64,000 nt of DNA, from assembly GCA_048938105.1 (NCBI GenBank), contig JBHLMN010000001.1, positions 160,001-224,000 of the forward strand, in the 5' to 3' direction. Shown here piece by piece: positions 57,738 through 61,500 of the stretch (position 1 is its first letter; every line of letters begins with the position of its first letter). A program made the position numbers and the translations under genes. The stretch is from Promethearchaeota archaeon (GTDB lineage: Archaea; Asgardarchaeota; Heimdallarchaeia; Hodarchaeales; Hodarchaeaceae). Under the pieces are notes generated by a model, which was not told the DNA's origin, did not search any database, and was given only the letters and a program-made list of their open reading frames with translations.

Positions 57738-58277
57738 TCATCTATTTAAGAGTCCCGTTTCTTTGATATATGTCATTATCTTCGCAACACTCTCTTCAGG
57801 TGTTTCTTTATCTGTTTCAACAATTATTTCTGGGTTAGGAGGTTCTTCATATGGATGGCTAATTCCAGTGAAGTTTTCTATTTCACCAGCAATCGCTTTT
57901 TTATAAAGCCCCTTGATATCTCTTTCAATACAAACCTCGACTGGGCACTTCACAAACACTTCCATGAAATTGCTTGTCTCATCACGTGCTGCTTTTCTAG
58001 AAGCAATGTATGGAGAAATAAAAGAGACTAATGTCGCCACACCATTTCGACTAAGCAGTTTAGCTACAAAAGTGACCCGTTCAAGATTCGTTTTTCTATC
58101 TGCCTCTGTAAAACCTAGATCCTTTGTCAGGCTCTGGCGGACTATATCACCATCAAGAATTTCTACTTTTCTTTCTAGTTTCCTTAATTTCTCAGCAACT
58201 CTGGTGGCTAGTTCGCTTTTTCCAGAACCAGACAAGCCAGTAAACCACAGTACAAATCCATTATGTTCTTTTGTCAT
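57738..58277 (-). CDS. cysC: Adenylyl-sulfate kinase
   Basis: WFTGLSGSGKS, LDGD, DLGF, ISPY, KGLY and FTGISHPYE motifs. Confidence 0.96.
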   Translation of the reverse strand: MTKEHNGFVLWFTGLSGSGKSELATRVAEKLRKLERKVEILDGDIVRQSLTKDLGFTEADRKTNLERVTFVAKLLSRNGVATLVSFISPYIASRKAARDETSNFMEVFVKCPVEVCIERDIKGLYKKAIAGEIENFTGISHPYEEPPNPEIIVETDKETPEESVAKIMTYIKETGLLNR

Positions 58278-59655
58278 TTATTATCACTTTACCTTCGAAA
58301 TCTTCAGGGACTTCTATATCAAACATTTTGAGTATAGTAGAAGCAATGTCTTCTATTTTCGCATCAACCTTACCTTTCCGAAGTTCTTCCTGAGGATCAT
58401 ATAAGATGTACATCCCATCCCAATCGTGCATTGCGTCATCAGAACCAAGATCATTTTCAAGGAGATATAAGGTATTATGACCAATTGTTCCTGCTGCTCG
58501 CCAATAAAGGTCATCAAATATTACCATCAAATCAGGATAGTCTCCCTTTGGATTCTCGTAATACTCTTCAGGATGAAAGACAATATTTTGCATTTTTTGG
58601 CCGTTAATATCCTTCAAATTGAGTAATTTTCTCTTAAGTTCTTCAAGTTCCTTTTTATAATCTTTTACACTGATAAGGCCTGTTTTCTCCCTTCCTTTAA
58701 GGTTTAAGTAAATTTTTGAGCAATACCCTCCCCAAGCCCATGCTTTAGTTTTTGTCCAGTCAATTTCTGCCTCTGATAATCGTGTTTGTTTATCAGGGGG
58801 GTTTTTCAAAACTAAATATTTTTCCTTGATCAACCATTCATTAATGCAAAAAGCTCCTTTCATGGCTTTAACACCATGATCAGAAACTACAAGAATATAG
58901 GTCCTTTCATCGATTAATTTAAGGATTTCACCAATATATTTGTCTATTGATTTATAATAATCACGAATAACATGTTGATATTTACTATTGGGTTCATGCA
59001 TATGATGTGTTTTGTCATAATAACGCCAAAACGCGTGATGAACACGATCTACGCCAATTTCTACAAAAGCAAAAAAATCCCATGGTTTCTCTTGAATTAA
59101 ATGCATAATCATATTCATGTGATTATCTAGCATCTCAAATAGTTGTTTGTAAATATTATCACGATCTCCAGACCGATAATCAATATCTGGAATGTATGAA
59201 CCACACTTTTTTTCTAGCTCTTGTTTTAATTCAGGAGGATACGTATAATTGCTTTTAGAACTGGGGGTCAAAAAACAGCTGACTGACCAACCATTCACTA
59301 CAGGAGGAGGATAACTTGGAGGAATTGCAAATAAACACGATTTTTGTCCTGTTTTAGCAAGTATGTCCCATATTTTGGGTTCTTGTATATTTTTTGAAGT
59401 AGCTATTCTAATTTCTTTGTATGAATACTTTTCTCGATAGCGAAAACCGTATAATCCTAGTTTTCCAGGTGTTTTTCCTGTAAACATGACCATCCATGCA
59501 GGTATAGTGATTGGAGGCATAGATGATCTCAAATTACCAGAAAGTCCATTATTTATCAATTTAGATATATTTGGAAGATCATTTCGAAATTCGTCAAAAA
59601 TTAATCTTGGAGAAGCACAATCAAGACCTATAACTAGCATTTTACGATTATTCAT
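58261..59655 (-). CDS. Alkaline phosphatase superfamily protein (phosphodiesterase/nucleotide pyrophosphatase-like)
   Basis: IGLDC, PPITIPAW (Thr nucleophile), DRVHH, VSDHG and DAMHD motifs. Confidence 0.88.
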   Translation of the reverse strand: MNNRKMLVIGLDCASPRLIFDEFRNDLPNISKLINNGLSGNLRSSMPPITIPAWMVMFTGKTPGKLGLYGFRYREKYSYKEIRIATSKNIQEPKIWDILAKTGQKSCLFAIPPSYPPPVVNGWSVSCFLTPSSKSNYTYPPELKQELEKKCGSYIPDIDYRSGDRDNIYKQLFEMLDNHMNMIMHLIQEKPWDFFAFVEIGVDRVHHAFWRYYDKTHHMHEPNSKYQHVIRDYYKSIDKYIGEILKLIDERTYILVVSDHGVKAMKGAFCINEWLIKEKYLVLKNPPDKQTRLSEAEIDWTKTKAWAWGGYCSKIYLNLKGREKTGLISVKDYKKELEELKRKLLNLKDINGQKMQNIVFHPEEYYENPKGDYPDLMVIFDDLYWRAAGTIGHNTLYLLENDLGSDDAMHDWDGMYILYDPQEELRKGKVDAKIEDIASTILKMFDIEVPEDFEGKVIINDKRT

Positions 59656-59673
59656 TATTTTTCCGCCAATATT

Positions 59674-60819
59674 CTAAGTAACAAAGGGATTCTCATATTG
59701 GAGGATGATATCTGCTACTTCAGGTCTCATTAATTCTTTAGGAGGATGTTTTCCTTCAGTAAGCATCTTCCGAATCTTTGTACCGCTGAAATTTATATGA
59801 TATTCTGAAGAATGTGGACAAATTTTCTCATTTACCACTGATCCACATTTCGTACAATGAGAAAAAGATTTGAAAAACAATGGGACAATTCCTATGTCTG
59901 GGTAATCATCAAATATGTCTTGAGCTGCAAATGGAGGGTAGTAGTTTCCTACCCCCGCGTGATCACGACCAATAATGAAATGGGTACACCCATAATTTTT
60001 TCGCATGATAGAATGGAAAATAGCCTCCTTGGGCCCTGCATATCGCATTTCTGTCAGAAGTGTAACAAGAACTGAGCGCTCACGCAGATAATAATGATTA
60101 ATAAGTGCATTGTATGATTCTAAGATCACTTTGTCTTTAAAATCTCCTTTTTTCTTTTTACCTATTACAGGGTTTATGAAGATCCCATCCACAAAAGTCA
60201 GGGCTGCTTTTTGAACATATTCATGTCCAATATGGGGAGCATTTCTTGTTTGAAAACCGACTATAGTTTTCCATCCTTTTACTCTGAATAACACTCGAGT
60301 TTCTTTAGGTGTCAGATGGTTTTCAGGAAAGGGGACGATTGGTCGCTTTAAGAGATTAATAGTACCCCCTAGCAAGACCTCTTTTCTATTATATATTCGT
60401 TTGACTCCTGGGTGCTTCTCATCTGTAGTGTTAAAGACTGCTTTTACCCAATGTTTTTTATCTGGAATAAACTTATCTTCAAGATCTAAAAGAGCTACCG
60501 CTTCTCCTTGATATGATAAAGCATATTGATTTCCGTTTTCAAGAAGGTTTGCCTGTTCTTTGTCAACAGCAAGCGTAATTGGAATGGTCCATGCTAAGTC
60601 ATTTGTTAAACGACCTGTTTCCAATACAGAGTCCACTTCTTGTTGTGTCATATATCCTTCCAGTGGACTGAATGTGCCTATAGCAATATTTTCCAGCTCT
60701 ATAAAGGTTTCATAGTCAATTGGAATTTGTTTAAATTCTTCAATTTCTTCTCTTATGCGATTCAATTGATTTTCAGATAATAATTGGTCAATCAATTGTC
60801 CTCCATGGGGCTTAACCAT
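59674..60819 (-). CDS. sat: Sulfate adenylyltransferase
   Basis: PHGG, FSPLEG, FQTRNAPHIGHE, MRYAGPKEA, GRDHAGVG and SGTKIR motifs. Confidence 0.97.
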   Translation of the reverse strand: MVKPHGGQLIDQLLSENQLNRIREEIEEFKQIPIDYETFIELENIAIGTFSPLEGYMTQQEVDSVLETGRLTNDLAWTIPITLAVDKEQANLLENGNQYALSYQGEAVALLDLEDKFIPDKKHWVKAVFNTTDEKHPGVKRIYNRKEVLLGGTINLLKRPIVPFPENHLTPKETRVLFRVKGWKTIVGFQTRNAPHIGHEYVQKAALTFVDGIFINPVIGKKKKGDFKDKVILESYNALINHYYLRERSVLVTLLTEMRYAGPKEAIFHSIMRKNYGCTHFIIGRDHAGVGNYYPPFAAQDIFDDYPDIGIVPLFFKSFSHCTKCGSVVNEKICPHSSEYHINFSGTKIRKMLTEGKHPPKELMRPEVADIILQYENPFVT

Positions 60820-60834
60820 CTTTAAGTAACCTTC

Positions 60835-61041
60835 CTAAAGATAGCCGAGCTTTTCGAGGCGTTGTTTTATTTCCTCTTCTTCCTTGGGATCAAGGTCTTC
60901 GGAACCCTCTACTTGCAATAATTGCAACAAGAGATGTTCAACATAATTATCAACGGTATTGAATCTTTCTTGTTTGATTTTTCGCTCCAAGAATTCATAT
61001 AGATTTTTAGAAATCGTTATTGTTTTTGATTCTTTGGCCAT
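60835..61041 (-). CDS. Small CopG/RHH-like protein with C-terminal LEKLGY tail
   Basis: TITISKNLY...TVDNYVEHLL (strand-helix-helix); ends EEEEIKQRLEKLGYL. Confidence 0.8.
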   Translation of the reverse strand: MAKESKTITISKNLYEFLERKIKQERFNTVDNYVEHLLLQLLQVEGSEDLDPKEEEEIKQRLEKLGYL

Positions 61042-61284
61042 TGTTGTTTACCTGCAAACATTATAATTTTTATATAAAATGAACAATACTTTCTAGTTTT
61101 GAAGGTTAATAAAGTCATAAAAGAAGCAAAACATTTTTTTAATTAACTATTATGATATAAGATAACTTTGAACAAACTACTACAAAACTCATAATATTTT
61201 ATAAAAATGATAAATAATCATTATTATAATTCTATGGATATTATAAATGGTTTTGAGCGAAGAAAATAATGAATAGATAATTTT

Positions 61285-61500
61285 TTATGTGTATCCCAAT
61301 TTCTCTAACTTCTCTAATACTTTTTCTTTGTCTTCTTCTGAAAAAGGTTCTTTTCCTTTCTTCGACTCCGTTACTAATTCACGGAGAACATAAACAGTAA
61401 ATCTTGAGACTGATGTGAAACCAGTTCCTTTAATGCGTTCCTGTATCTTTTCATATAATGTTCTCGGAATGGAAACAGTTGTATAATCAGTTGGACTCAA
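61285..61500 (-). CDS. Small CopG/RHH-like protein with C-terminal LEKLGY tail (paralog)
   Basis: TTVSIPRTLYEKI...GFTSVSRFTVYVLRE; ends EEDKEKVLEKLEKLGYT; GCGGTGA RBS. Confidence 0.8.
   Translation of the reverse strand: MSPTDYTTVSIPRTLYEKIQERIKGTGFTSVSRFTVYVLRELVTESKKGKEPFSEEDKEKVLEKLEKLGYT

Follow-up and report, generated by a model that had tools for sequence, protein, structure and literature searches.

The closest described counterpart of the system analyzed here is a gene cluster of Pyrococcus yayanosii (PYCH_17520-17560; Jin et al. 2021, PMC8268124). It comprises a putative copG gene, an ATP sulfurylase, a DHH-family pAp phosphatase (DHH pApase), a type I phosphodiesterase and an adenosine 5'-phosphosulfate (APS) kinase. 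The authors called PYCH_17520 "a putative copG transcription factor" that "potentially regulates the pathway" and speculated that PYCH_17550, a type I phosphodiesterase/nucleotide pyrophosphatase, removes pyrophosphate (PPi). Homologous clusters were reported in Aciduliprofundum boonei, Aeropyrum pernix, Ignicoccus hospitalis and Ferroglobus placidus. Thermococcus onnurineus is likewise listed there among the carriers of the cassette, and for P. yayanosii the paper cites a method of gene disruption. We analyzed a 64,000-nucleotide stretch from the genome of a Promethearchaeota archaeon (positions 160,001 to 224,000 of contig JBHLMN010000001.1, hereafter the window), which carries an operon of this kind on its minus strand at positions 57738-61500. 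In order, the operon encodes two small ribbon-helix-helix (RHH) proteins, RHH71 and RHH68, the ATP sulfurylase Sat, a PF01663 enzyme of the nucleotide pyrophosphatase/phosphodiesterase (NPP) and alkaline phosphatase (AlkP) type, and the APS kinase CysC.

The window resembles the P. yayanosii cluster in gene set and order, with a copG-like gene, an ATP sulfurylase, a type I phosphodiesterase and an APS kinase that are contiguous and co-oriented. It differs by its two RHH genes, by the lack of a DHH pApase in the operon and by its Asgard (Hodarchaeales-like) host. The gene set was described at annotation level in PMC8268124 and is therefore not new. That account identifies copG by annotation only and describes no operator, tail or regulon. 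A text search of the literature for RHH proteins, ATP sulfurylase and archaea found no paper.

We read the window as one more copy of a conserved archaeal cassette for sulfate activation, i.e. the synthesis of 3'-phosphoadenosine 5'-phosphosulfate (PAPS), with RHH71 (type A) and RHH68 (type B) as its transcription factors, and give this reading a probability of roughly 80%. Type A genes stand before sulfate-activation genes and a conserved operator lies at their promoters, so the RHH proteins are most likely transcription factors. Following the example of Arc or MetJ, two RHH dimers would occupy the two half-sites of the operator from the same side of the helix and would repress the operon including their own gene. 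In the lineage of the window the operator would have drifted, and would be present once before RHH68-sat-AlkP-cysC and as 20-bp tandem copies before the gene of a TauE-type anion transporter.

The cassette and its probable operator across archaea

A scan with one genome per species found the type A RHH in 290 genomes, from which 80 loci were fetched for comparison. Directly downstream of the type A gene, 62 of the 80 loci carry sat (median gap 11 nt, often overlapping), seven a CysD homologue and five the operon-type AlkP. In 74 loci, then, the immediate downstream neighbour of type A belongs to sulfate activation, being sat, CysD or AlkP. In two further loci a second RHH gene (type B) followed by sat reproduces the arrangement of the window; three loci have something else at this position and one ends with the contig. 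An AlkP orthologue (43-54% identity) is present in 37 of the 80 loci and cysC in 52. The order sat-AlkP-cysC is found in many of the loci bearing AlkP and cysC and recurs across archaeal phyla, with the same cassette order in loci from Thermoproteota, Thermoplasmatota, Bathyarchaeia and Asgard archaea. All three loci that were sampled from the AlkP side read RHH-sat-AlkP-cysC, one of them labelled Acidobacteriota. The A. boonei cassette locus was recovered independently of PMC8268124.

Type A genes head operons of either ATP-sulfurylase type, Sat or CysD-CysN. The presence of the same RHH family before two unrelated ATP sulfurylases argues for a link to the pathway and not to a single protein partner. 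The median identity to the window proteins is 61% for type A, 54% for sat, 49% for AlkP and 52% for cysC. Between this Asgard genome and Aciduliprofundum or Thermoprotei, type A proteins are 60-65% identical. This high conservation matches that of the operator, yet it may also reflect further constraints.

The putative operator is a palindrome. In 995,358 bases of loci the exact pattern TAATTA-N4-TAATTA occurs 70 times, where 0.42 occurrences are expected from base composition, and all 70 sites are located at operon promoters. Sixty-six of them lie at most 200 nt upstream of type A genes and cover 61 of the 80 loci, and the remaining four are directly upstream of a cysC gene that heads an operon. 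The spacer reads nATn in 93% of the sites and the flanks favour T and A, which gives an 18-bp consensus palindrome, tTAATTAwATwTAATTAa, with its two TAATTA half-sites 10 bp apart (canonical sequence TAATTAAATATAATTA). Six further loci contain versions with one or two mismatches. In a typical locus (e.g. L042) a TATA-like box is followed after about 19 nt by the operator, then by GGTGA and the ATG. The operator is located between the TATA-like box and the ribosome-binding site and therefore over the expected transcription start. This is the usual position of an archaeal repressor. The type A regulator and the operator reach through Thermoproteota, Thermoplasmatota, Bathyarchaeia, Hadarchaeota, one Promethearchaeota genome and a few bacterial metagenome-assembled genomes (MAGs).

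Several loci deserve separate mention. In a Micrarchaeota MAG (L069:1966-3993) the CysD homologue is split by an intein with a LAGLIDADG domain (675 aa) and keeps its C-terminal LRALGYM. A 230-aa open reading frame (ORF) with a weak, sub-threshold match to PF01663 stands between CysD and CysN in a Bathyarchaeia operon headed by type A (L049:11055-11747). In L028 (8176-11677) two copies of RHH-sat-RHH mirror each other perfectly about the operator palindrome, an arrangement that looks like an assembly fold-back at the palindrome, not like biology. Five loci (L050, L057, L063, L083, L094) come from MAGs with bacterial labels. Among them, type A genes with canonical or one-mismatch operators are found in MAGs labelled Chloroflexota or Dehalococcoidales. 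Divergent RHH-sat-AlkP-cysC cassettes are found in MAGs labelled Actinomycetota (L083) and Acidobacteriota (L094), the operator in neither. These occurrences could be due to transfer to bacteria or to binning errors. In three genomes of the same genus as the source genome of the window (G101, G106 and G118; 91-94% complete), the profile of the C-terminal tail described below gave no match, versus three matches in the source genome; the sulfate-activation cassette may be an accessory island within this genus.

The RHH proteins and the candidate operator variant of the window

RHH71 (61285..61500, minus strand) starts with TTG and encodes 71 residues comprising a YTTVSIP...GTGFTSVS core, an acidic linker and the C-terminus ...LEKLEKLGYT. 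RHH68 (60835..61041, minus strand; 68 aa, ending ...RLEKLGYL) is the first gene of the tightly packed part of the operon. The two proteins are paralogues (BLASTP E 4e-11, 32% identity). The type A family follows the pattern YTTVSIP..GTGFTSVS.YV.YVLRE..EPF[ST]EEDKE..E+L+.LGY, and 1944 cluster representatives emerged at E<=0.001 from an exhaustive search with a hidden Markov model (HMM). Many related loci also encode type B relatives that end in this tail. An AlphaFold2 (AF2) model of RHH71 contains helices at residues 13-22, 31-46 and 55-67, with a predicted local distance difference test (pLDDT) score of 85-89 in the core. Its segment 5-12 is unpaired, and a strand at this position would pair only in a dimer; together with the first two helices this fits the RHH architecture. 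A Foldseek search with the model gave weak matches to NikR, Arc and ParD2 over the RHH part. The sequence search of solved structures with the RHH profile yielded weak matches only, to NikR and to the C-terminal domain (CTD) of RNA polymerase alpha, and the ParD family was matched weakly as well (TIGR02606, E 0.0044).

Natural fusions and a third paralogue extend the family. P0361 consists of three modules, a generic RHH, a type A whose tail is internal and a type B that bears the tail too. This fusion is compatible with A-B pairing and hints, at the level of sequence, that types A and B act together. The N-terminal generic module reaches RHH_1 at 27.5 bits in P0361; in P0437 it matches DUF7557 at 32 bits and RHH_1 at 20.0, just below the cut-off. 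The type A and B modules themselves reach no curated model. Three further proteins of about 205-214 aa (P0365, P0404 and P0432) combine a generic RHH (DUF7557/RHH_10) with a domain of some 100 residues that has no assignment and with a tail-bearing type A RHH. The third RHH paralogue of the source genome (C28:84244-84453; L002:1498-1716) is a protein of 72 aa ending in ...ERLRGLGYL. Its gene stands between those of an arylsulfotransferase (PF05935) and a Sulfotransfer_3 protein, and no operator-like site was recognised upstream of it.

In the window the spacer between RHH71 and RHH68 contains a candidate operator of a lineage-specific form, TCATAATAGTTAATTA (61140..61155, minus strand), which was identified as a footprint across related spacers. 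Its core, ATAATWRTTAATTA, occupies 61140-61153. The general form of the variant is T[A/C]ATAAT[A/T][A/G]TTAATTA. Fifteen bases, TCATAATAGTTAATT, are identical in the spacers between the A and B genes of the window, L008, L011 and L012, which are otherwise diverged; the sixteenth base is A in three spacers and G in L008. The variant site is located about 114 nt upstream of the ATG of RHH68.

The source genome (G000; 5.85 Mb in 65 contigs) contains exactly six matches to ATAATWRTTAATTA, and one match to a reversed-pattern control. All six fall in three promoter regions, namely those of the sat operon, of the transporter gene and of an operon of unknown function with a helix-turn-helix (HTH) gene. 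Two copies 20 bp apart are situated 65-100 nt upstream of the TauE/SafE transporter gene (C4:45800-45840). Three copies, again 20 bp apart, precede a 237-aa gene that is followed by a 345-aa double-HTH gene (C4:47785-47840); the C4 tandem-repeat regions were examined as loci L097, L101 and L107. We took a one-mismatch copy at C9:59275, which overlaps the beginning of an unrelated ORF, to be a chance match. In two related genomes (G121 and G120) a single variant site is present before RHH-B-sat, and a tandem pair lies 80-135 nt upstream of a TauE orthologue (87% and 69% identity, respectively), so that tandem copies precede the TauE gene in three genomes. TauE genes adjoin the cassette elsewhere too, in L096 and in P. 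yayanosii (PMC8268124). Based on this phylogenetic footprinting, the TauE operon and the unknown/HTH operon are likely further members of the RHH regulon, which would be a small one joining an anion transporter to sulfate activation. Since variant sites are present at both the sat operon and TauE, the regulon would couple transport to activation. Six exact TAATTA-N4-TAATTA sequences are found elsewhere in the source genome, all without the nATn spacer; about eight are expected by a hand estimate from base composition.

A number of observations weigh against the RHH proteins being the transcription factors of the operon. The canonical palindrome is absent from the window, where the best matches have three mismatches, a level reached by 40% of shuffled sequences. 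About 75 nt separate the variant site from the nearest TATA-like box downstream of it. This fits simple promoter occlusion worse than the arrangement in the canonical loci does, and the site might be read by RHH71 or by RHH68. The operator is a prediction from position and conservation alone. RHH71 scores 17.9 bits with the Pfam model RHH_1 (PF01402), under the cut-off of 20.5, and RHH68 has no Pfam match at all. Finally, the 71-residue regulator is unusually conserved and has a tail in common with pathway enzymes, which suggests constraints beyond DNA binding.

The C-terminal tail and the NPP-type enzyme

An earlier note on this DNA, made from the letters and their ORFs, had pointed out that both microproteins end in LEKLGY[T/L] while the AlkP protein ends in GKVIINDKRT, and the translations bear this out. 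The tail of RHH71 spans approximately residues 52-71, PFSEEDKEKVLEKLEKLGYT (61288..61347, minus strand; alignment A1 and tail HMM), and RHH68 ends in ...DPKEEEEIKQRLEKLGYL (60838..60894, minus strand; ORF end, alignment and tail HMM). L65, L68, G69 and Y70 (RHH71 numbering) are invariant in alignment A1. In the AF2 model a flexible linker separates the tail, a helix of its own (residues 55-67), from the core, which is modeled with higher confidence. Of the 43,437 ORFs of the source genome, only RHH71, RHH68 and the C28 paralogue have an acidic-helix LxxLGY ending.

We built an HMM of 24 residues from RHH tails only. In about 43.7k ORFs it matched the tail of RHH71 with 47 bits (E 2.8e-12) and that of RHH68 with E 0.0044. 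It also retrieved the extreme C-termini of a paralogous NPP/AlkP family, with E-values down to 6.5e-7, and nothing else below E ~1 in 43,494 ORFs of the same genome. The profile finds the tails of the paralogous enzymes and nothing else among the genome ORFs, so the resemblance is specific. In this paralogous PF01663 family (~520-575 aa) 89 of 120 proteins end in ...[FY][ST]xEE..I.ERL+xLGY[LI], and the Leu, Leu, Gly and Tyr of the tail are as invariant as the catalytic residues. The likeness between RHH proteins and paralogues runs past the helix into the [FY][ST]xEE linker. An AF2 model of one paralogue gives the tail helix a pLDDT of ~80. The tail-bearing paralogues are encoded in polysaccharide loci, alongside flippases, glycosyltransferases, sulfotransferases and a sulfatase, and have no RHH genes nearby.

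Two families of pathway enzymes carry the tail as well. The CysD homologues that follow type A genes end in ...QDKEKxxMQ+LRALGYM, which aligns with the C-terminus of bacterial CysD, ...SMEEKKRQGY (PDB-entry 1ZUN), and the tail looks ancestral in CysD. Three Bathyarchaeia-type CysC proteins end in ...L+xLGYI. Among 120 Asgard genomes, 52 contain matches to the tail profile, in ORFs of 64-117, 156-195 and 496-567 aa plus one borderline ORF of 421 aa. The acidic linker and the amphipathic helix ending in LxxLGY thus constitute a real, portable C-terminal module of 20-25 residues. The suggestion of the earlier note that the tail is such a module is thus borne out by the retrieval of NPP paralogue tails with the RHH-tail HMM and by its presence in CysD and some CysC proteins. 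A text search of the literature for the peptide strings of the tail found nothing relevant.

The ORF list confirms the gene order that had been noted, with its gaps of 15-18 nt and a 17-nt overlap. RHH71 is separated from RHH68 by 243 nt, RHH68 from sat by 15 nt and sat from AlkP by 18 nt, and the overlap is that of AlkP with cysC. Sat (59674..60819, minus strand; 381 aa; PF14306 and PF01747) is an ATP sulfurylase of the homo-oligomeric type and scores above the cut-offs of two curated models (NF003166, 515.9 bits, cut-off 387; TIGR00339, 368.6, cut-off 322.95). CysC (57738..58277, minus strand; 179 aa) matches PF01583 (E 1e-59) and TIGR00455 (226.6 bits, cut-off 138.7). The tail-less enzyme between them (58261..59655, minus strand; 464 aa) matches PF01663 with 165.8 bits (cut-off 23, E 2.6e-48). 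The best relatives in the databases carry the labels Hodarchaeota, Promethearchaeota and Heimdallarchaeota. By Pfam, the flanking genes encode a UDP-glucose dehydrogenase, a cytidylyltransferase, a CDP-alcohol transferase and a TagF-like enzyme, which places the operon within a surface-glycan locus. A scan for sigma-70 promoters and terminators, which is ill-suited to an archaeon, gave matches at or below shuffle expectation. Datasets that contain the stretch were DNA contigs from sediment and mangrove only, with no RNA among them.

The window AlkP is part of a large and well-conserved group, with 4646 relatives at E<=1e-10, the closest 120 at 51-86% identity. In 40 orthologues (alignment A3) D12, T50, D203, H207, D259, H260 and H410 are invariant. 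With catalytic roles assigned by analogy rather than by mapping onto a structure, the operon AlkP would be an intact, two-metal NPP-type enzyme with a threonine nucleophile. A phmmer search of solved structures with the window AlkP found no match at E<=0.001, and the AF2 model of an AlkP paralogue matches ENPP6, Xac NPP, ENPP1 and PhnA at E ~1e-15. The statement in the earlier note that AlkP-superfamily proteins often end in an acidic RLRxLGY tail applies to the paralogous PF01663 family and not to the orthologous group of the window AlkP. The tail is found in none of its 120 closest relatives and in none of the orthologues (>=43% identity) in the 37 related loci. The window AlkP, at 24-29% identity to the tail-bearing paralogues, lies outside their family. 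The operon-type enzyme is a separate orthologous group without any tailed member among those examined, and nothing is therefore missing from it.

The proposal that AlkP belongs functionally to PAPS metabolism is strengthened by the recurrence of sat-AlkP-cysC across phyla and by DHVE2 archaea, in which a sulfotransferase takes the AlkP slot of the operon (L016 vs L018). This sulfotransferase has 186 aa and occupies, in L016, L017, L032, L042 and L044, the slot of the AlkP orthologue in the related DHVE2 locus L018. A distant NPP paralogue ending in ...LKKLGKI, with Lys in place of Tyr, closes the Aciduliprofundum-type operon in L042, L044 and A. boonei. The ORF list and Pfam show no gene for a DHH-family pAp phosphatase in the window operon. 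The A. boonei DHH protein as query had no match in the source genome, which is not proof of absence. We considered AlkP as the only phosphatase for 3'-phosphoadenosine 5'-phosphate (PAP); three genes of the Inositol_P/CysQ family (CysQ/IMPase) are, however, present elsewhere in the genome. Many loci contain both AlkP and a DHH pApase gene, and in DHVE2 archaea the small sulfotransferase alternates with AlkP, which is for this reason not merely a CysQ substitute. Most likely the enzyme acts on a (sulfo)nucleotide of the pathway or on pyrophosphate; candidate activities are the removal of PPi or nucleotide pyrophosphate, APS or PAPS turnover and sulfuryl transfer.

The role of the tail and comparison with known systems

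Our best guess is that the tail is a protein-contact helix, which would mediate RHH dimer-dimer or A-B contacts or dock to a component that reports the state of the pathway. The earlier note had proposed that the tail-less AlkP receives the tail in trans, perhaps as a docking peptide through which transcription would respond to the state of the enzyme. The homology of the RHH tail to the cis tail of the paralogous NPP family fits this proposal, as does the tail helix in the model of one paralogue, which at a pLDDT of ~80 is compatible with docking on the enzyme. The co-occurrence suggested as a check was found in part: a tail-less AlkP and a tailed RHH stand together in 37 of the 80 loci, including all three sampled from the AlkP side. 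Any regulator of the operon would, however, show such co-occurrence, and the RHH tail is kept in 12 of 32 fully flanked loci without an AlkP orthologue, in DHVE2 loci with a sulfotransferase in the AlkP slot and where the RHH gene heads CysD-CysN operons. Moreover, the operon-type AlkP is tail-less in every lineage examined and only distantly related to the tailed paralogues, which lack RHH neighbours. We therefore regard a trans-acting peptide for AlkP as improbable. Docking to a common receptor of the sulfate-activation machinery (Sat, CysN, CysC or another component), for which enzymes and repressors would compete or which they would share, and through which the repressor would read the occupancy of the pathway as antitoxin tails read their toxin, agrees with the fact that all tailed families found belong to sulfate activation or sulfation (RHH, CysD, CysC and the NPP paralogues beside sulfotransferases and sulfatases). 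When type A, type B and the C28 paralogue are compared, no feature is better conserved than the tail, and the build of the proteins, in which a flexible acidic linker joins the RHH core to a C-terminal helix modeled with lower pLDDT, recalls RHH antitoxins. No such receptor was identified, however, and the tailed families live in lineages that differ in their enzyme sets (Sat vs CysDN). P0361, with its type A tail inside the chain, indicates that the tail does not need a free C-terminus. Taken together, a common receptor seems unlikely to us. An HbYX-type motif for proteasome docking was dropped, because many tails end in LGYID or LGYLD and the tail is internal in the fusion.

The terminal tyrosine might instead be sulfurylated or phosphorylated and so serve as a shuttle or feedback mark, which AlkP, a sulfotransferase or an arylsulfotransferase would write or erase. 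Tyrosine is invariant where phenylalanine would suit a purely hydrophobic role, the C28 paralogue stands between an arylsulfotransferase and a sulfotransferase gene, and AlkP and a sulfotransferase alternate in one operon slot. All of this support is context alone, and a regulator beside its target genes explains the C28 neighbourhood equally well. The NPP paralogues of the Aciduliprofundum type have LGK, not LGY, and bacterial CysD, as solved in complex with CysN, likewise has GY at its end. We know of no report of a modification on this terminal GY of bacterial CysD. A modified tyrosine is accordingly very improbable. A further alternative is a mere structural helix cap or self-association helix (Leu-x-x-Leu-Gly-Tyr-hydrophobic), a simple and stable ending without meaning for the pathway. 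The pattern is that of an amphipathic helix with a glycine C-cap, and the A1 profile weakly matches the C-terminal helix of the RNA polymerase alpha CTD (...EIAEKLNDLGY, E 0.0089). A generic cap is harder to reconcile with the limitation of the tail to a few families of sulfate metabolism and to three RHH paralogues in a 5.85-Mb genome, with the confinement of the Asgard matches to three size classes and one borderline ORF, and with a shared part that reaches into the [FY][ST]xEE linker. We consider it unlikely, although it retains some weight. Nearly as much weight may be given to a broader and still doubtful idea, in which the tail is a docking or signalling module of sulfate activation in repressors and enzymes alike, and the repressor would sense the state of the enzymes via a shared receptor or a tyrosine modification. 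Protein-protein contact, and not a small-molecule co-repressor, would in that case govern how strongly PAPS synthesis is transcribed.

Only a few regulons of archaea are known, and hardly any of them can be followed from one phylum to another. The regulator and operator described here mark sulfate-activation operons of two unrelated ATP-sulfurylase types and provide a testable model for the control of archaeal PAPS synthesis; PAPS feeds sulfated glycans and, in some lineages, sulfate assimilation. If the tail is a docking or modification site, it would represent a new way to couple enzyme state to transcription. The context data also narrow the candidate substrates of the NPP-type enzyme between sat and cysC.

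Arc, MetJ and CopG are small, self-regulating RHH proteins that bind repeated half-sites one helical turn apart over a promoter, as predicted for the RHH proteins of the cassette. Arc and CopG bind as dimers of dimers, and MetJ, which acts on tandem met-boxes, likewise controls sulfur amino-acid metabolism. These regulators have no acidic linker and LxxLGY helix, their sequence kinship with the RHH proteins of the window is undetectable beyond the fold, and for the window proteins we infer DNA binding. The RHH antitoxins ParD, RelB, FitA and CcdA likewise combine an N-terminal RHH core with a flexible C-terminal segment, which in antitoxins folds on the partner and tunes repression. In the cassette, by contrast, there is no toxin gene; sat, CysD, AlkP or a second RHH gene is downstream in 76 of 80 loci, and the tail is also found on enzymes. 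Pfam shows no match to a toxin family among the window genes, and the identity as a type II toxin-antitoxin system was rejected since no toxin gene is adjacent. CysD (sulfate adenylyltransferase subunit 2), whose C-terminus in PDB-entry 1ZUN aligns with the tails of the archaeal homologues following type A, is an enzyme of the PAPS-reductase/ATP-PPase fold, and the window has Sat, not CysD. The solved NPPs (Xanthomonas NPP, ENPP1/5/6 and the phosphonoacetate hydrolase PhnA) share PF01663 with the window AlkP, whose aligned orthologues have the invariant Asp/His set and the Thr. The window AlkP differs from them by very low identity and in being cytoplasmic and operon-linked to sat and cysC. 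Set against these systems, the new elements are, besides the wide conservation of the type A family, a pan-archaeal operator, the variant of it in this lineage, whose regulon would include TauE, and a previously undescribed short module, the tail common to regulator and pathway enzymes.

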